DNA from: an uncultured Pseudomonadota bacterium
GTDB lineage: Bacteria > Babelota > Babeliae > Babelales > RVW-14
NCBI GenBank assembly: GCA_964354855.1
Contig: CAYHBO010000005.1
Location: 1,514 to 61,128, forward strand
DNA length: 59,615 nucleotides
Reading direction: 5' to 3'
The notes beneath the pieces were generated by a model. It saw only the letters and a program-made list of their open reading frames with translations. It searched no databases and was not told where the DNA came from. Shown piece by piece: positions 2,778-35,880 of the stretch. A program made the translations under genes and the position numbers. How positions within the stretch are numbered: the first letter of the stretch is position 1; each line of letters starts with the position of its first letter.

Positions 2778-3311
2778 TTATCGCCAGACGAGTCTGCTGC
2801 GTTGTGGGCAGTATGGGCAGTAGCGATATTCTGATCGAGGACTAAATCCTTCATGGCAGTAGTCACAAAATTTTTCATAAACCAACACATCGCCACAATC
2901 ACCACAGCGACGTGCGCCGCTAATATTTACTGTTTTATAGCAGGTTGAGCACCAATTGCCAGTATGGCGTGGTGCAGGTGTTGTGTGAACGACGACAACT
3001 GATTTTGGCTTGCTGCGTTCATAGGCAAGTTGTTGTTCCTTTGAATGACGTTCAGCTCTTTCGTCTGCTACCTCTCCATCTGCATCACGGCCCATTTCGC
3101 TACCGAGTATGCCACCTAATGCTGCGCCTACTAATGTTCCAAAGCCTTTACTCTTCCCACCGGTAATAATGTTTCCAAGAGCGCCACCTGCTACAGCGCC
3201 GACAGCGCCACTGCGAGCTTCATGTTTACCACAGCCGGTAAATATGGTTAATAGTGGGATAAGGGAGAGAAGAAGGAGGGTGAGCGGCTTTTTTACGTTA
3301 GCTTGTATCAT
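2778..3311 (-). CDS. Glycine-zipper lipoprotein with C-terminal Cys-rich zinc-ribbon region
   Basis: Lipobox-like IFTGC; GAVGAVAGGALG/GAALGGILG zipper; four CxxC pairs. Confidence 0.7.
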   Translation of the reverse strand: MIQANVKKPLTLLLLSLIPLLTIFTGCGKHEARSGAVGAVAGGALGNIITGGKSKGFGTLVGAALGGILGSEMGRDADGEVADERAERHSKEQQLAYERSKPKSVVVVHTTPAPRHTGNWCSTCYKTVNISGARRCGDCGDVLVYEKFCDYCHEGFSPRSEYRYCPYCPQRSRLVWR

Positions 3312-3339
3312 TTATGTAGAGCCTTTGTCTTAAGTTCAA

Positions 3340-4137
3340 TTAAATTTTTTCAAATACCGTGTTGTTAATCCACCCCAGTTTGCCTTTGAATGAAACTTTA
3401 TAGTAAGGGTCAGTTACCTTCTTGATGGTTCCTTCATCCCCTTCGTGAACCGTCATGATGGATTGAAAGGTTTCTCCCGGTCCTGATCGTACCATTGCTT
3501 TAGGAGTAATAACGATGCCCTTCTGTGTCATACGTAAGCCGTATTTTACTGCGAGCATGAAACCAAAAATGCAGAGTAACAATAACAACGGTATCGTAGC
3601 AAACTTAAGCTTTTTGGCAACAGGCCAACGTTTTATAAGAAAAATAGAAATCCATGCTATTAGAAATAATAATTGTAAATAGAGGAGTTGGATGCTTTGT
3701 ACGATCGAAAGAACGGTGATCTTGCAGTATTGCGATAGCGCAATAATAAAGGATCGTGTTTCTTCTTTTTTGTCATTATGTTCATTAAGACGTTTTTTTA
3801 CTTCACTTATGTTATGGGTAAGTTCGGCTCTATTGAATAATCCCCAATTTGTCTCTGCTTTGCGCCAATAAAGAAGGGCATAGCCTAGTTTATTTAACTT
3901 ATAGGCACAATTGCCAAGATTGTAGTGTACGTGAGCACTTTTTTTTGGAATCTGCTTATAGCATTCGTATGCTTTTTCATAATTTCCTGCTTTATATAGC
4001 TCATTAGCCTGTAGAAATAATTCCTGAGGAGGCGTAGTGTTGAGCGGATCATTTGTGGTACAAAAAGCTATAATGGTCGTCAGTAAGAAAAATTTATAAT
4101 TCATGGGTACAACCTTTTTTGTTATGGGCATCTTCAT
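3340..4137 (-). CDS. batE: BatE-like TPR + SH3b protein
   Basis: TPR (ANELYKAGNYEKA, HYNLGNCAYK), TM segment, C-terminal SH3b (VRSGPGE..GWI); last gene of the Bat cluster. Confidence 0.7.
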   Translation of the reverse strand: MKMPITKKVVPMNYKFFLLTTIIAFCTTNDPLNTTPPQELFLQANELYKAGNYEKAYECYKQIPKKSAHVHYNLGNCAYKLNKLGYALLYWRKAETNWGLFNRAELTHNISEVKKRLNEHNDKKEETRSFIIALSQYCKITVLSIVQSIQLLYLQLLFLIAWISIFLIKRWPVAKKLKFATIPLLLLLCIFGFMLAVKYGLRMTQKGIVITPKAMVRSGPGETFQSIMTVHEGDEGTIKKVTDPYYKVSFKGKLGWINNTVFEKI

Positions 4138-7920: not shown

Positions 7921-8915
7921 TATAAAATTCCTCTCCAAATAAAGAGCCGCAGAAAAAATTCTAAACCGATAAATAAAAGTAACATCCAGATGAAGCTGAG
8001 AAATAATTCATAATAATTTCTGAAAATGTTTGTTTCGTAAGAAGTTGTTTCTAAGGTATCAATTTTATCATAGATAGCACGCATGTCTTTTGGGTTATGT
8101 GCCTGAAAAAATTGGCCGCCGGTTTGGTGCGCTATTTTTTCAAGAAGTCCTTTGTTGAATAAGGGAGCTTGAGTTTGTTGTATTCCAAATATTGGGTGCT
8201 TAAAGAACGCATGTTTATCATTGCCGATGGCGATGGTATAAACTTTAATGCCAAATTTTTTGGCAAGATCAATAGCGGTTTCTGGGTCTATTTTTTCTTG
8301 AGGAGTTGGTTCTCCATCGGTGAGTAAAATAACGATCTTACTTTTTGCCTTAGATGTTTTTAAACGATTTACGGCTGTGGCTAATCCAGTTCCAAGAGAA
8401 GTTCCGCTTGGATCAATAATGCCAAGTTGCATGGCGCCAACGATTTCTTTGAGGAAATTTTTATCTAAGGTGAGTGGGCAGTAAGAGAGCGTATCTTTAG
8501 CAAAAATGACTAACCCGATAGGGTCATTGATTCTTCGTTCAATAAAGCGGATAGCCTCTTCTTTTGCTACTTGAAAACGTGTTCTGCGATCATTGAGATC
8601 ATCAATGAGCTGCATACTTCCAGAAACGTCAAGCGTAACGACAATATCTACCCCATCGACATTAACTACCGATTTTTCATCGACCATTTGTGGCCGAGCT
8701 ATAAGCAATGCTAACCCTGCAAGGCTGATGAGCCTGAGCATAAAAAAAAGTTGCTTATGGTAGGAACTTTTAAGTTGCCCCTGTTGCTTGAGAATTTCAG
8801 TGAGCGGGTAACGATAGCAGGGGGTCTTGTACCATCTTAAACGATAGATGACAATCCCTAAAAGCAGTGGGAGTAAACAATATAAAATCTCTACATAGGC
8901 AAATCGGAAAAACAT
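7920..8915 (-). CDS. batA: BatA-like VWA domain protein
   Basis: LARPQ-like segment, MIDAS DVSGSM, GTSLGTGLATAVNRL, ILLTDGE, KVYTIAIG. Confidence 0.85.
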   Translation of the reverse strand: MFFRFAYVEILYCLLPLLLGIVIYRLRWYKTPCYRYPLTEILKQQGQLKSSYHKQLFFMLRLISLAGLALLIARPQMVDEKSVVNVDGVDIVVTLDVSGSMQLIDDLNDRRTRFQVAKEEAIRFIERRINDPIGLVIFAKDTLSYCPLTLDKNFLKEIVGAMQLGIIDPSGTSLGTGLATAVNRLKTSKAKSKIVILLTDGEPTPQEKIDPETAIDLAKKFGIKVYTIAIGNDKHAFFKHPIFGIQQTQAPLFNKGLLEKIAHQTGGQFFQAHNPKDMRAIYDKIDTLETTSYETNIFRNYYELFLSFIWMLLLFIGLEFFLRLFIWRGIL

Positions 8916-14275: not shown

Positions 14276-14287
14276 TAACCCTCTTTC

Positions 14288-14368
14288 CTTGAATTTCAAC
14301 CACCACTGACTTACACTAAGCCTGAATTTCAACCATCAAAGTACCAAATTATCCCTGAATTTTGACCA
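14288..14368 (+). repeat. Three 33-bp-phased direct repeats (YTGAATTTYRACCA) overlapping a putative promoter
   Basis: TGAATTTCAACCA at 14290 and 14323, TGAATTTTGACCA at 14356. Confidence 0.85.
14289..14317 (+). promoter_or_regulatory. Putative sigma70 promoter of the AAA+/DUF4143 gene
   Basis: TTGAAT (14289-14294), 17 nt, TACACT (14312-14317). Confidence 0.45.
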
Positions 14369-14379
14369 TGGAGTGTTTC

Positions 14380-15729
14380 ATGAAGCGTTTTATCGATTAT
14401 TTTCTTCTTAAATGGAAAACGAGTTCTTTGCGTAAACCGCTTTTGATTCGTGGGGCGCGTCAAGTTGGGAAGACTCATTCGGTACGTGAATTTGGAAAAT
14501 CATTTACTTCGTTTGTAGAAGTAAATCTTGAGTTTCATCAAGAAGCGCGTGAAATTTTTGAAAAAAATCTTGATCCAAAAATTATCATCACAAAAATTTT
14601 TGTTTTTAAAGGGCAAGAAATTATTCCTGGTGAAACATTGCTCTTTATCGATGAAATCCAAGTGGTTCCAAATGCAATTACAGCCTTACGCTATTTTTAT
14701 GAGATGATGCCAGAGCTTCATGTTATTGCTGCGGGTTCGTTGTTAGATTTTGCGATAAAATCTGTTGGTATGCCGGTTGGAAGAGTTTCTTCAGTTCATA
14801 TGCATCCGCTATCATTTATTGAATTTTTAAGTGCCATGGGGTCTCGTGGTGTGATCCAAGAAATTTTATCGCATGATCTGAGTCATGAAATTGAGATTGG
14901 TTTTCATAATAAGTTTCTTGATTTGCTGAGCCAGTACTTAAGTATTGGAGGGATGCCAGAGGCTGTAGCATGCTGGCAGCAGGATCAAAATCTACGAACT
15001 TGTTCCGAAATTCCTTTGTCGTTAATCAGAACGTATAAACAAGATTTTGAAAAATATGCAGAAAAGCATCAGTTAAATTATCTTAATATTTTGTTTAATC
15101 ATATTCCTCAACAACTTGGAGGAAAATTTAAGTACAGTGATGTTGAAGGTGAATATAGAAAGAGAGAGCTTGCGCCGTGCCTTGATTTGTTATTAACCGC
15201 TCATGTTGCGCATAAAATAATGAGAACGGGTGCTCAGGGGATTTCCTTGGGAGCTCAAGCTGACTTACAATCGTTTAAAATCATGCTCATTGATGTTGCA
15301 CTTACACAATTTATTTTAGGGTTAAAAACAGGACATTGGATGCTTAATCCTCTAGAATCTTTTGTGAATAAAGGGGCATTGATTGAGGCGTTTATAGGAC
15401 AAGAACTGATTGCTTATGAACATCCCATGAATGATACACAACTTTATTATTGGCAGCGTGAGACTCGTGGAGGAGAAGCGGAAGTTGATTATGTCATTCA
15501 ACGAGAAACGCAGATTATTCCTATTGAAGTTAAAAGTGGAGCAGGAACTGCTATGCGCAGTATGAAATCGTTTTTGGAAAGTCATCCAGCCTCAACATAT
15601 GGGATTCGTTTTTCTACTAACAATTATTCAGTTCACGAGAACATTCATTCATATCCATTGTATGCTGTTGCTAAAATAATTGCTGATGCTGATCAAGACG
15701 TTAAAGCTGCGCTTATGTCATTATCTTAA
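14380..15729 (+). CDS. AAA+ ATPase (AAA_14) with DUF4143 / PD-(D/E)XK-like C-terminus
   Basis: Walker A GARQVGKT, Walker B LFIDEIQ, GGMPEA, EVDYV..IPIEVKSG; GGAG RBS before ATG 14380. Confidence 0.85.
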   Translation: MKRFIDYFLLKWKTSSLRKPLLIRGARQVGKTHSVREFGKSFTSFVEVNLEFHQEAREIFEKNLDPKIIITKIFVFKGQEIIPGETLLFIDEIQVVPNAITALRYFYEMMPELHVIAAGSLLDFAIKSVGMPVGRVSSVHMHPLSFIEFLSAMGSRGVIQEILSHDLSHEIEIGFHNKFLDLLSQYLSIGGMPEAVACWQQDQNLRTCSEIPLSLIRTYKQDFEKYAEKHQLNYLNILFNHIPQQLGGKFKYSDVEGEYRKRELAPCLDLLLTAHVAHKIMRTGAQGISLGAQADLQSFKIMLIDVALTQFILGLKTGHWMLNPLESFVNKGALIEAFIGQELIAYEHPMNDTQLYYWQRETRGGEAEVDYVIQRETQIIPIEVKSGAGTAMRSMKSFLESHPASTYGIRFSTNNYSVHENIHSYPLYAVAKIIADADQDVKAALMSLS

Positions 15730-32099: not shown

Positions 32100-33299
32100 A
32101 TGATGCATGACATAGAAAAATCTCTAGAAATTATTAAGCATGGTACGGTTCAAGTAACTCCTGAGGCTGATCTATTATCAAAACTGAAACGTGGTAAAAA
32201 ACTTAAAATAAAACTTGGGGCCGATCCTACCGCGCCCGATTTGCATCTTGGTCATGCGGTGGTGCTTAACAAACTACGGCAGTTCCAAGACCTTGGGCAT
32301 GAAATTATTTTTTTAATCGGTGATTTTACCGCACTGATTGGTGATCCCACTGGCAAGTCAAAAACGCGTCCGCCAATGACCACTGAAGCTATTGCGACAA
32401 ACGCACAAACCTACTTTGAGCAAGTATCAAAAATTCTTGATCCAACGAAAATGACCATTCGCTATAACGCTGAATGGCTTTCGACATTATCATTTGCCGA
32501 TGTGCTGCTGCTTGCGGGTAAGACAACCTTGGCGCGTATCATTGAACGTGAAGATTTTCAAACGCGTTTACGTGAAAACAGTCCAATCGGGTTTCATGAA
32601 CTTTTCTATCCACTCATGCAAGGCTATGATTCCGTTGCGTTGCAGGCCGATGTTGAGCTCGGGGGAACGGATCAGACGTTTAATTTGTTAATGGGACGGT
32701 TTCTGCAAGAACAATATCATCAAGAACCGCAGGTCATTGTTACGCTTCCATTGCTTGAGGGCCTAGATGGCGTACAAAAAATGTCGAAAAGCTTGGGTAA
32801 CTATGTCGGACTTGCAGAAGATGCGGCAGCTGCATATGGAAAATTGATGTCGATTTCAGATGAGCTCATGTGGCGTTATTACCATTTGTTACTTGATAAA
32901 AATGAGCATGACGTTGCCGTTATGAAGCAAGATGTGGCATCAGGATCCTTGCATCCAATGAATGCCAAGAAACAGATGGCATGGGGAATTATCAATCGCT
33001 TCTGGTCACATGCCGATGCTGATCGTGCGCAACAAAACTTTGAAGCGTTATTTCAGAAACAAGATCATTCTCAAGCAAAAGAATTTCAGGTTTTGGCTAA
33101 TGTCTCAAACCCGGTATGGATTGTTGATTTACTTAAAGCGCTTGGTGCTATTAGTTCTTCATCAGAGGCGAAGCGTTTAATCGAATCAAAGTCGGTAAGC
33201 ATTGACGGTGAAGTGGTGACAGACTTTAAAGCAGAGATCAAAGGATCTGTTGGTATGATTGTTAAAGTAGGTAAACACAAGATCTATAAACTTTCGTAA
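32100..33299 (+). CDS. tyrS: Tyrosine--tRNA ligase
   Basis: [33 protein letters not shown]-terminal S4 domain. Confidence 0.95.
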
Positions 33300-33300
33300 A

Positions 33301-34647
33301 TTATTCAATCAGCGATTCAAATGCAGAGCGTTGCTGATCTAAACAAGTTTGAACAATGGCATACAGTGGATAAGAGTTTATTTTTTCATACACTGAATAA
33401 TTTTGTGTTGAAAAGCGTATGCCATAAGGGGATTTAGGATGGCTTTCAAGGAACAAATGTATGCTTTTGAGGGTTGATCCTTTTCCCCCCTTAACTTCAA
33501 CAGGGATAATATGTTCATTGCGTTGAACTAAATAATCTACTTCTGCGCTGCCGTTTGCCTTATGGCGATGCCAGTAGTAAAGCTCAGGGTAATAAATGGG
33601 GTTGGTATAAGCTAAAAATTCTTGTCCAACAAAGGCCTCAACGAACTCTCCTTTATTTACCAATGATGTTTCTGCATTGAGAATCCAGTTGTTAAGTTGT
33701 AATCCTAAGAGGGCCTGGCTTAATCCGATATCAACCAAAATAACTTTGAAGTCCCTGAGATCTTTTTGAGCACCAAGGGGAATGCCATTTCCCGTTGAAT
33801 GCCATACTTTTTGAGTAACATTTGCCGTACAAAGCAAATCTAGTGCTGGAGATAGTTCGCGAGATCGATAATCTCCCTCAACCTCGCTGTACTTAAATTT
33901 TTTACTCAGTTGTGATGGTAAGTTTTCAAAGAGTGTTGTGACATACTGGATTTGTTGTTGCTTGGTATATTTGTAAAAATCTTGTCGATAGCTGCTGAGT
34001 AACGATTGATGAGACGTTGCGCATTGAAGTAAGTCTTGTGTGTTGATCCACATTTGAATGGCTTCAGGCATGCCGCCTGTGGCAAAATATTGAGCGAGTA
34101 AGCGTAGTAATTTATCGTGTAAAATTTTGCTCATTTCTTGTTTAATGTCATGGTCAAAAATTGTTTTGATAATAGATTTTTCATCAAGCGCACTTAGATA
34201 TTCGATGAATGATACTGGATGCATGTACAGTGATTGGACTCTTCCAACGGGTAACCCAACCTGCTGAATTGCAAAATCAAGCAAGGAACCGGCTGCTGCA
34301 ACATGCAGCTCAGGGAGCATCTCATAAAAATAGCGTAATGCGATGATTGCTTTTGGAGCCGCTTGGACCTCATCAAAAAAGAGAAATGATTTACCTGGTA
34401 TGAGTGGTTTAATATTAAGGGAAGCTGCTATTTCACGAATAATGCGTCTTGGGTCGAGGTCTTCCTCAAATATTTCTATAAACTTAGGGAATGTTTCAAA
34501 ATTAATTTCAATAAACTGCTCAAACGTTTTGCCGAGCTGACGGAAGGCATAGGTTTTCCCAACCTGTCTTGCGCCACGCACGATTAGTGATTTTCGGTAG
34601 GGATTTGATTTCCAGGCTAAGAGGTGGTGGTCGATCAGGCGCTTCAT
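33301..34647 (-). CDS. AAA+ ATPase (AAA_14) with DUF4143 / PD-(D/E)XK-like C-terminus (paralog of 14380-15729)
   Basis: GARQVGKT, FFDEVQ, GGMPEA, EVDYL..IPVEVKGG. Confidence 0.85.
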   Translation of the reverse strand: MKRLIDHHLLAWKSNPYRKSLIVRGARQVGKTYAFRQLGKTFEQFIEINFETFPKFIEIFEEDLDPRRIIREIAASLNIKPLIPGKSFLFFDEVQAAPKAIIALRYFYEMLPELHVAAAGSLLDFAIQQVGLPVGRVQSLYMHPVSFIEYLSALDEKSIIKTIFDHDIKQEMSKILHDKLLRLLAQYFATGGMPEAIQMWINTQDLLQCATSHQSLLSSYRQDFYKYTKQQQIQYVTTLFENLPSQLSKKFKYSEVEGDYRSRELSPALDLLCTANVTQKVWHSTGNGIPLGAQKDLRDFKVILVDIGLSQALLGLQLNNWILNAETSLVNKGEFVEAFVGQEFLAYTNPIYYPELYYWHRHKANGSAEVDYLVQRNEHIIPVEVKGGKGSTLKSIHLFLESHPKSPYGIRFSTQNYSVYEKINSYPLYAIVQTCLDQQRSAFESLIE

Positions 34648-34652
34648 CTTTT

Positions 34653-34783
34653 ATCCTTTTTTTGGTTTAAAACTGTCCCATGATAGCCATGTATTGGTTA
34701 AAAAGTAAACATGTTTTAGTCAATGCATGGTTAAAATATCCTCAAGATTTAGCCATGCTATGGTTATTTTTACCCCATGATTT
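34653..34783. repeat. Degenerate 33-bp tandem array with internal palindrome
   Basis: Units start at 34685, 34718 and 34751, with a partial unit at 34653; TGGTT cores at 34663, 34695, 34728, 34761. Confidence 0.85.
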
Positions 34784-34831
34784 GTCCAAAATGCTAAAAT
34801 ATGCAACTTATTGTGGATATTTTTTAGCAAT

Positions 34832-34864
34832 AAAAATGGGGCCACTTTAAAAAAGTAGCCCCAT
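34832..34864 (-). terminator. Intrinsic terminator after 34887-35495
   Basis: Minus-strand stem ATGGGGCTACTTT/AAAGTGGCCCCAT followed by TTTT. Confidence 0.65.
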
Positions 34865-34886: not shown

Positions 34887-35495
34887 TTAAATTGAAAGTC
34901 TAAACTTAAGATTGTTTTCTGTTTCACTTTGTGATTTAAGATTAAAAGAAAGTATTCTTCCATAATTTTCCTGAGCCACAAACATCATCCTGTTCGTCGT
35001 TGAGTGAGGTGGAATTTCTACCTGTGAGCTGAAATCAATGCAGCGCTCTTTAAAATCATGTGCAAGCTTGCTATTTGCTGATGAGGACATGCCACCATCA
35101 CATGCAGCAACAATTAAAAATGGTATCCCGAATATAAATAAGCTTGGGATAACCCACAGTAAGCCACGATTAAGTGCTTTAATCTGAGCTTTCTTTGTTA
35201 TGAAGCTAATTGATTCAAGAGGAAGATTGATGCTTCTTGCATTAAGTACGTAGGCTTTTTCTGTGTTGTTAGTAATCGTAAGTTGAATAGTTTTGTAACC
35301 TTTTTTTTCTACGTTTCTAGAAAAAGTATGTTTACAATCACTTACTGACAATGTATGAGCAGCTGATTCAACACCTGCCTCAACTTGTTTAGGTCCGAAT
35401 GATGGTGCAAATGGATGAGGTTTATATTTTGCACAGCCGGTGATTATCGTAGCGGCGAGTAAAAGGTTACATACAATAAGATTACGTTTTAGCAT
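34887..35495 (-). CDS. Lipoprotein, unknown function
   Basis: Lipobox ITGC; one internal hydrophobic helix. Confidence 0.6.
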   Translation of the reverse strand: MLKRNLIVCNLLLAATIITGCAKYKPHPFAPSFGPKQVEAGVESAAHTLSVSDCKHTFSRNVEKKGYKTIQLTITNNTEKAYVLNARSINLPLESISFITKKAQIKALNRGLLWVIPSLFIFGIPFLIVAACDGGMSSSANSKLAHDFKERCIDFSSQVEIPPHSTTNRMMFVAQENYGRILSFNLKSQSETENNLKFRLSI

Positions 35496-35880
35496 AGATC
35501 CCCCCTGTAAAACTAATTACAGATAAAAGCGTTAGTGGTTATTACGTTGACAGAGCTGCATAATTAAGCTTTTTATTGCATGGTGTTATGTATGAAAAGT
35601 CAAAAAATATAAAAGGTATAGCCTGTGGCCTTGTATGCTTAATTATTCTGTTTGAATTTTTTATTAATTTGGTTGAAATTAGTATGTATTGGTATCAAAA
35701 GTTGCTTTCAGGGTGCTGTTGATAATATTGTTGTCCCAGACGTTTAAACTGCTTTTTTGGGTTGAAACTCAGACATGTTTTGATACTTTTTGGTTAAAAA
35801 GCACGGTAGTCTATTGATTTCTTTTTACTAAGTTTTTTATGGTATCCACATCTTTTATACATTTTATGGTGGAGAATATC

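Follow-up and report, generated by a model that had tools for sequence, protein, structure and literature searches.

A phased 33-bp repeat array, probably a self-operator, precedes a DUF4143 (PDC-S01) ATPase-nuclease gene in a Babelota genome

The stretch of DNA analysed here, called the window throughout, comprises 59,615 nucleotides of contig CAYHBO010000005.1 (assembly GCA_964354855.1; 1.59 Mb, 38% G+C, 71 contigs) from an uncultured bacterium that GTDB places in the Babelota (Babeliae, Babelales, RVW-14). It carries a gene whose product joins an AAA_14 ATPase domain to a DUF4143 domain, and which we call paralog A. Directly 5' of this gene lies array A (34652-34783), made up of four units of 33 base pairs (bp) each, the last one of 32 bp. 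An earlier reading of the window from its letters alone, hereafter the sequence-only reading, had picked out this array as an iteron- or operator-like platform on which the protein would assemble. We find that the array is one instance of a pattern that accompanies the gene family across phyla, and we propose that it most probably serves as the gene's own operator.

Paralog A is intact, has the G+C content of its genome and carries all the residues that are invariant in its homologs. Its neighbours are tyrS on one side and, on the other, a 202-residue open reading frame (ORF) without a family match, followed by the enolase gene eno. The convergent tyrS gene occupies 32100-33299 and the stop codon of paralog A begins at 33301, which leaves the 1-bp gap already reported by the sequence-only reading. 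Because of this gap, and since no terminator-like hairpin is found in the scanned junction (33297-33303), the transcripts of tyrS and paralog A should run into each other. At the other end, the intrinsic terminator of the 202-residue ORF makes paralog A a separate transcription unit that needs its own promoter within 34648-34835, the interval in which the array lies (Table 1).

Table 1. Coordinates of array A, of paralogs A and B and of the upstream terminator in the window.
Feature	Position	Strand	Description
AAA_14 + DUF4143 gene (paralog A)	33301-34647	minus	ORF, 448 residues; Pfam AAA_14 + DUF4143
Proximal degenerate unit of array A	34652-34684	minus	sense strand ATCATGGGACAGTTTTAAACCAAAAAAAGGATA; at predicted transcription start and 5' leader
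Third (penultimate) unit	34685-34717	minus	sense strand AAAACATGTTTACTTTTTAACCAATACATGGCT; core in spacer of predicted promoter
Second unit	34718-34750	minus	sense strand AAATCTTGAGGATATTTTAACCATGCATTGACT
Distal unit	34751-34783	minus	sense strand AAATCATGGGGTAAAAATAACCATAGCATGGCT
Outer half-site TTGGACAAAT	34780-34789	minus	matches conserved TTGGCTTAAAT block of closest relatives
Intrinsic terminator of upstream gene (34887-35495, minus, 202-residue ORF)	34836-34864	minus	13-pair stem, then T run
Paralog B array	14287-14379	plus	three units, (C)CTGAATTTYRACCA cores at 14290, 14323, 14356
AAA_14 + DUF4143 gene (paralog B)	14380-15729	plus	449 residues, 52% identical to A

The three exact-period units of array A are present as the sequence-only reading quoted them, and so is the partial fourth: it is a weaker unit that runs into, and contains, the ribosome-binding site AAGGA (34654-34658). 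The three full units are identical to one another at 20-21 of 33 positions and the fourth matches them at 9-13 of 33; Tandem Repeats Finder makes no call on the array, even at score 30. When up to two mismatches per arm are allowed, an imperfect palindrome TTTARCCA-N5-TGGYTAAA, with half-sites TTTAACCA / TGGCTAAA, starts at 34650, 34682, 34715 and 34748, thus at spacings of 32, 33 and 33 bp. A scan of the array against Rfam gave no match near its gathering score, and hence no known RNA motif.

To see array A for what it is one has to look at the family. A pattern search limited to one genome per species yielded 80 loci with homologs 36-58% identical, spread over Dependentiae, Chlamydiota, Legionellaceae, Bacteroidota, Spirochaetota, Verrucomicrobiota, 'Deltaproteobacteria', Aminicenantes and others, the nearest being in Dependentiae. 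In nearly all 80 loci, direct repeats stand just 5' of the start codon. The sequence-only reading had proposed comparing 33-bp autocorrelation upstream of these genes with that upstream of other genes, and the comparison bears it out: a self-match of at least 13/16 occurs in 58 of 78 usable upstream regions, and the best lag among these 58 is 33 in 48, 32 in four, 64-66 in five and 37 in one, whereas the lags in 974 control upstream regions of the window's own genome are evenly spread, with none preferred. A stricter array caller, applied to the 80 regions and with the paralogs A, B and D of this genome in the count, finds arrays in 60, most often of three units (30 arrays) or two (22), more rarely of four (5) or five (3). 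Their 109 spacings fall at 33 bp (90), 32 bp (16), 34 bp (2) and 31 bp (1), so that 106 of the 109 are 32 or 33 bp.

Across the family the repeated unit is about 20 bp long, direct in orientation and approximately TTGCCTTGAaTTTTtAAC; over the whole period the consensus reads roughly aaaaTTgCCTTGaaTTTTtAAc(c)aaaa, with TTG and TTTT as its most informative positions. Units of one array agree at 76% in a core of about 18 bp, and at 48% in the remainder of the period, whose length is kept. A conserved core with a length-kept spacer is the mark of binding sites under selection, not of units duplicated recently. On plasmids, more distant homologs keep the same period with other sequences, as in the three AATTTATCC..TTTTCTCTAAAA units on Criblamydia plasmid 1, and other DUF4143 subfamilies have a private palindrome at the same place, for example TGGACAAAT, about 17 bp, ATTTGTCCA in this genome and in other Dependentiae.

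Two of these other subfamilies deserve a description of their own. Genes for a 390-residue DUF4143 subfamily (contigs C66, C12, C10, C13 and C35; loci L081-L110) are without 33-bp direct repeats and have instead, directly before the ribosome-binding site, a single private palindrome of about 36-40 bp, such as TTGGACAAAT, 16-17 bp, ATTTGTCCA or GTGCTAAT...ATTAGCAC, with a spacer that often resembles a -10 box. On the plus strand of contig C35, 5' of a gene of another DUF4143 subfamily that starts at about 15068, the units are phased at 33 bp and each is palindromic: CCAAATGTAAGG-TGGA-CTTTGCATTTAG, then CCAAATGTAAAG-TCCG-CCTTACATTTGG.

The genome of the window holds four paralogs, A to D, which are 52-55% identical to one another, and each has private TTTYAACCA-type repeats that end at its own ribosome-binding site. 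The 33-bp-phased array that the sequence-only reading saw before the paralog at 14380 (paralog B) is therefore one of a set; it bears TGAATTTCAACCA at 14290 and 14323 and TGAATTTTGACCA at 14356. For arrays B and D, core identity is 0.78-0.80 within an array and 0.52 between arrays, and cores that are private to each paralog within a single genome argue against a shared host factor. Paralog C has a promoter-like TTGATT, 18 bp, TATAAT between two inverted units.

These arrangements are not easily had by chance. Same-strand clusters of at least three TTTNRACCA within 110 bp number four in the 1.59-Mb genome, against about 0.01 expected by simple arithmetic from the 236 single matches. Three of these clusters stand upstream of a paralog, a different one each time, and the remaining cluster, on contig C47, is an orphan whose units are of paralog B's type. 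A matrix built from other genomes only gives 17 site pairs at 32-34 bp, compared with 1-3 at other short spacings, and seven more at 65-67 bp, which is twice the period.

The orphan array on contig C47 (minus strand, about 3333-3428, outside the window) has three units. Its two proximal units, ATCCCTG(C/A)ATTT(C/T)(G/A)ACCATG, lie at a distance of 33 bp, and the more proximal differs little from paralog B's. The gene directly after the array is unrelated; its product has a signal peptide and resembles EcKL kinases weakly (E 5e-4, below the cut-off). This array may be one on which paralog B acts in trans, or what is left of a DUF4143 gene since lost. Two further pairs of family-type sites were seen. 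In the window, ACCGTGCTTTTTAACCAA and TGTCTGAGTTTCAACCCA stand 32 bp apart at 35775-35807 (minus), between the 202-residue ORF and eno and some 280-310 bp upstream of that ORF; they could be a relic array or chance. On contig C52 (plus, 2968-3018), AGCGTCTTTTTTAACCAT and TCCGTCTATTTTGACCAA are 33 bp apart, about 120 bp upstream of a 235-residue ORF that is not DUF4143. A long tandem repeat of 33-bp period on contig C55 (about 8300-8560) is unrelated to the operator arrays: it is intragenic and encodes 11-residue protein repeats, and its match to the site matrix is by chance.

Array A itself is best judged against its closest relatives, six loci from metagenome contigs whose proteins are 64-70% identical to paralog A. 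All six keep four half-sites, TGGCTTAAA, then TATAAAATAACCAT-N4-TGGCTAAAA, then TTTTAACCA, and each orientation recurs at 33-34 bp. The central palindrome, present once in the relatives, occurs in three copies in array A, and the number of units is two in the close relatives and four in array A. Because its half-sites are conserved in six relatives at this protein distance, the palindrome of array A is, on sequence grounds, real and under selection in its own clade. The palindromic unit of the sequence-only reading thus holds within the clade of paralog A; for the family as a whole it gives way to the direct repeat of about 20 bp. The signal for array A is seen in its phase and its own clade rather than in any single-site score, and the array, weak when taken alone, looks clearly real in context.

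How do the units lie on the promoter? The intergenic region of paralog A has a single sigma-70-like match, TTTACT, 18-bp spacer, TATCAT (34680-34709, minus); a separate register scan settles one base off, on TTACTT, 17-bp spacer, TATCAT, in the same register. For the family, we scored -10-like hexamers (at least 4/6 matches, with A2 and T6) at spacings of 8-27 bp in phyla with sigma-70-type promoters. Of the units, 29% have one exactly 17 bp past their TTG hexamer, and at every other spacing the share is no more than 10%. It is mostly found on the penultimate unit (17 of 44 arrays), and 24 of the 44 arrays have at least one. In Bacteroidota, the -7 box TAnnTTTG lies at +22/+23 from the TTG of the penultimate unit in 7 of 14 arrays. 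Over one period the family consensus in fact reads TTGaat, 17 bp, TAAAAT. The TTG of the unit thus appears to act as a -35 box; the penultimate unit would overlap the -35 region and the spacer and the last unit would cover the predicted start, which is the geometry expected of a repressor.

The array travels with one gene and with little else. There is no conserved neighbour gene around the homologs, and the one recurrent neighbour is a gene of another DUF4143 subfamily; a conserved partner gene was rejected on this ground. Further copies of the unit within 2.5 kb on either strand are absent in 56 of 57 arrays, and a two-ended mobile element was likewise rejected, since there is no second repeat set within that distance. 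Gene plus array therefore look like a self-contained single-gene unit, as in the cassette that the sequence-only reading envisaged, and the gene is a listed defence candidate, PDC-S01; its surroundings, however, are no defence island, given that the flanks are tyrS, an ORF without a family match and eno, with the two named genes being housekeeping genes.

The family is strongly expanded in the reduced genomes of this class. DUF4143 genes occur in 42 of 61 genomes of the class, with 16 copies in this 1.59-Mb genome and 24 in one of 1.9 Mb, and homologs lie on 60 plasmids, one of which, from Glaesserella, has its homolog next to a type III restriction-modification system. Close homologs number more than 7,000, and carriers in culture include the Bacteroides pMMCAT plasmids (NZ_CP072253), Segatella copri and Criblamydia sequanensis (plasmid 1). 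In relatives of the tyrS locus (L112-L130), the upstream side of tyrS is conserved across the genera of the bacterium's family and the downstream side differs in every relative, so that the 3' side of tyrS reads as a synteny breakpoint; no empty site or insertion border downstream of tyrS is readable in these relatives. Genes of an FYIDKT...PRRFGKT type (a 590-residue ORF on contig C47 and genes at L006 and L017) recur near DUF4143 genes. By their motifs, we take these genes for a possible second family of AAA-ATPases joined to a nuclease, resembling AAA-ATPase_like plus PDDEXK_9 proteins.

The protein is what the sequence-only reading had named, an AAA+ ATPase with a restriction-endonuclease-like C-terminus. 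Pfam assigns residues 18-151 to AAA_14 (PF13173, E 1.4e-21) and residues 222-386 to DUF4143 (PF13635, E 2.8e-28). An alignment of 75 homologs, used both for a motif survey and for AlphaFold2, shows invariant Walker A (G25-T32, GARQVGKT), Walker B (D92/E93) and candidate arginine-finger residues, together with the PD-(D/E)XK residues E337, D371, E384 and K386. The model of paralog A has a predicted local distance difference test score (pLDDT) of 96.1 and a predicted template modelling score (pTM) of 0.94. It comprises an AAA+ core (1-150), a helical lid (about 155-227) and, between lid and nuclease (about 230-305), a helix-helix-helix-hairpin module (helices 230-246 and 262-274, the latter the putative recognition helix; hairpin 278-304) that would fit a winged helix. 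The C-terminal domain, alpha-beta-beta-beta-alpha-beta, bears the four invariant acidic and lysine residues and is a predicted PD-(D/E)XK nuclease; DUF4143 has been placed in that superfamily (PMC3424549).

Searches by fold and by profile place the protein among known families. Foldseek ranks first the archaeal AAA+ ATPases 2qen and 2fna (E 2.9e-07 and 5.5e-07; TM-score 0.50-0.52 on the target; identity 14-16%), followed by origin recognition complex (ORC) subunits, Sulfolobus solfataricus Orc1/Cdc6 on origin DNA (2qby), NLRs and MuB, with E of 3.5e-05 to 1e-04 for 2qby_A and the ORC subunits. Sequence searches of PDB, NCBIfam and PHROGs with paralog A returned no informative match. PADLOC matches it to three PDC-S01 models (E 2.5e-135, 1.2e-133 and 2.5e-83), the best being PDLC04788 over residues 1-421, and also matches paralog B (E 6.5e-137). 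In the accessible text of its description, PDC-S01 ranks fourth in frequency among the defence-type systems of prokaryotes, a candidate that is unvalidated (PMC12988326), and an abundant one embedded in defence loci (PMC12988326; bioRxiv 10.1101/2024.01.29.577857); that same text holds nothing on DNA-sequence specificity or upstream repeats.

We propose, with a probability of about 0.6, that the four 33-bp units are the self-operator of this DUF4143 (PDC-S01) gene, most likely bound by its own product in autorepression. Self-binding suggests itself because the cores are private to each paralog, because the layout travels with the gene across phyla and because no other protein is conserved beside it: without a conserved neighbour, the only protein that is always present is the product of the gene itself. 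Each protein would read its private site of about 20 bp through the winged helix, to which the AAA+ domain may contribute as it does in Orc1/Cdc6, with one protomer per unit or, in the clade of paralog A, one dimer per palindrome. As the sites are three helical turns apart, they would lie on nearly the same face of the DNA, so that neighbours could make contact and cooperate in binding. With the -35 region and the start site occupied, RNA polymerase would be blocked and the nuclease held at a low, self-limited level. The operator half of the sequence-only reading's "iteron/operator-like" is thus supported, in that the array is a conserved 33-bp-phased cis element on a promoter; an iteron in the replication sense finds no support.

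Several observations weigh against this proposal. The winged helix of paralog A is identified from a predicted model only. Covariation does not single it out: in a partial Mantel test of repeat-core against protein distance per domain, r is 0.09 for the winged helix (p about 0.07) and 0.26 for the AAA+ domain, which correlates best and is also the best marker of phylogeny; mutual information between protein columns and repeat positions, after average-product correction, has its top pairs scattered, with no enrichment in the winged helix. Array A is moreover the most degenerate of the four in its genome, with a within-array core identity of 0.43, equal to the between-array level, against 0.78 for B and 0.80 for D, and its units fall outside the 40 best genome matches of the close-relative matrix, in which the sites of B, C, D and the orphan rank high. 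Finally, two to three orphan arrays precede unrelated genes, so that sites exist without the gene downstream.

What else could the array be? The main alternative, which we consider unlikely, is that it is the working platform of the ATPase-nuclease and that autoregulation is a by-product: bound head to tail on the phased sites, the protein would form an ATP-dependent oligomer that serves as a primed sensor or effector, or else it would nick or cut there, and in that second case the array would act in cis when the cassette is copied or moved. The invariance of the ATPase and nuclease residues in all 75 homologs speaks for such a role, as do a fold that resembles Orc1/Cdc6 and MuB, both of which assemble on DNA, and a phase of 33 bp held strictly across phyla with different promoter types; a patchy, multi-copy family with members on plasmids, and a unit number that goes from two in close relatives to four in array A, would suit it too. 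Against it, a repressor site would call for just this -35/-10 register, the paralogs, at 52-55% identity, are old and do not depart from their genome in G+C content, and the loci are without a second end, a target duplication or an integrase or transposase nearby. The two views meet at one point: since the ATPase and nuclease residues are invariant, the protein does more than repress, and the self-operator may also be a resting or working platform of the protein.

A different binder is less likely still. Here a host regulator, or another DUF4143 paralog acting in trans, would occupy the array and the downstream gene would merely be its target. The 16 family members of this genome could indeed cross-regulate, an array of paralog B's type does stand before an unrelated, secreted kinase-like gene on another contig, and covariation did not tie the repeats to their own winged helix. 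But the cores are private to each paralog within the genome, the layout follows the gene across phyla and onto plasmids without a conserved neighbour, and a host factor that is conserved from Dependentiae to Bacteroidota and yet tied to one gene family is unlikely.

The array might also need no dedicated binder at all. Each unit would then be a -35 box with its -10 box 17 bp later, 33 bp being the length of a promoter plus 4 bp, and this is how the consensus of each period can be read, with its sharp -10-like peak at the 17-bp spacer. We regard such tandem promoters as very improbable, in that the conserved 18-20 bp include a CC before the TTG and TTTT..AAC(C)A after it, which sigma-70 does not read, and that the -10 box is found in just over half of the arrays, usually at one unit. 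In addition, the cores are private to each paralog, Bacteroidota, with promoters of another geometry, keep the same period, and the pattern occurs in no other gene class of this genome. The least probable reading of all, that array A is functionless now, a similarity by chance or in decay within AT-rich intergenic DNA, can appeal to the limited identity among its units, to the silence of Tandem Repeats Finder and to a core identity at the between-array level, but against it stand the half-sites and the 33-34-bp phase kept in the six relatives, a position, orientation and period that match the family pattern, four clusters where some 0.01 were expected and an intact gene with all its invariant residues.

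The self-operator proposed here recalls several known systems and coincides with none. Paralog A shares with published PDC-S01 members the same two Pfam domains (AAA_14 and DUF4143; COG1373), the PADLOC match and the single-gene unit; those members are embedded in defence loci, whereas paralog A sits among housekeeping genes. With archaeal Orc1/Cdc6 (S. solfataricus, PDB 2qby) it would have in common the AAA+ domain, the lid and the modelled winged helix, as well as repeated sites directly upstream of the gene, which paralog A putatively binds. In Orc1/Cdc6 systems, origin recognition boxes adjoin the protein's own gene. Paralog A nevertheless lacks Cdc6/ORC membership by sequence (Pfam gives AAA_14 and DUF4143 only) and has no relative in the PDB by sequence; it carries an extra PD-(D/E)XK nuclease, its repeats are strictly head-to-tail at 33 bp, and 16 copies per genome argue against the arrays being origins; no sign of replication or of an unwinding element was seen, with no analysis aimed at such an element. 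The best structural matches, the archaeal 'Arch_ATPase' proteins PABY2304 (2qen) and SSO1545 (2fna), are without the nuclease domain and share the 14-16% identity given above.

Iterons offer the closest parallel in layout. On theta plasmids, the Rep initiators (RepA of pPS10, RepE of F, pi of R6K) bind helically phased direct repeats beside the rep gene and also act in autorepression; the repeats measure 17-22 bp, their usual period is about 22 bp, and Rep consists of two winged helices with neither an AAA+ domain nor a nuclease. Array A likewise has direct repeats phased by whole helical turns beside the gene of its putative binder, but its period is 33 bp, the protein is an AAA+ ATPase-nuclease and nothing else suggests a replicon. 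By their defining features, then, the locus is neither an Orc1/Cdc6 nor an iteron/Rep system. Classical autorepressor operators resemble it in where the predicted sites fall, over the -35 region and start of the repressor's own gene; they consist of one or two adjacent palindromes, as opposed to 2-5 sites three turns apart, and the putative repressor here is a 50-kDa ATPase-nuclease. Tn7-like and Mu-like transposon ends differ by the inverted second repeat set and the transposase neighbour that this locus lacks.

A wider view can be offered as a conjecture, and a doubtful one. PDC-S01 proteins, whose genes rank with the commonest immune candidates of prokaryotes, would be sequence-specific, Orc1/Cdc6-like ATPase-nucleases with a private and fast-evolving specificity, and the phased array at the promoter of each would be its natural partner on DNA. 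An ATP-dependent, head-to-tail oligomer bound to the array would at once silence the gene and keep the nuclease at rest. A disturbance, for instance by foreign DNA, titration or lost supercoiling, would set free both the gene's expression and the nuclease's activity. In the reduced genomes of Dependentiae, with 16 copies in 1.59 Mb, some copies may besides have been recruited as ordinary transcription factors, as hinted by the orphan array before the kinase-like gene on contig C47.

Paralog A is thus a new member of a known family, COG1373/DUF4143/PDC-S01, and the phased operator array is, as far as the literature shows, an apparently unpublished hallmark of that family: the searchable literature holds no description of the array, of upstream repeats or of sequence-specific binding for DUF4143/PDC-S01 proteins. 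The conserved, phased sites of about 20 bp provide a first concrete DNA ligand for biochemistry and structural work. They also bear on cloning: a defence-assay construct in which some 150 bp of the native upstream DNA are retained may repress itself. Through its array, the specificity of each paralog could be read directly from the genome sequence, and the phased sites would account for how a nuclease that may be toxic is held to a safe level.

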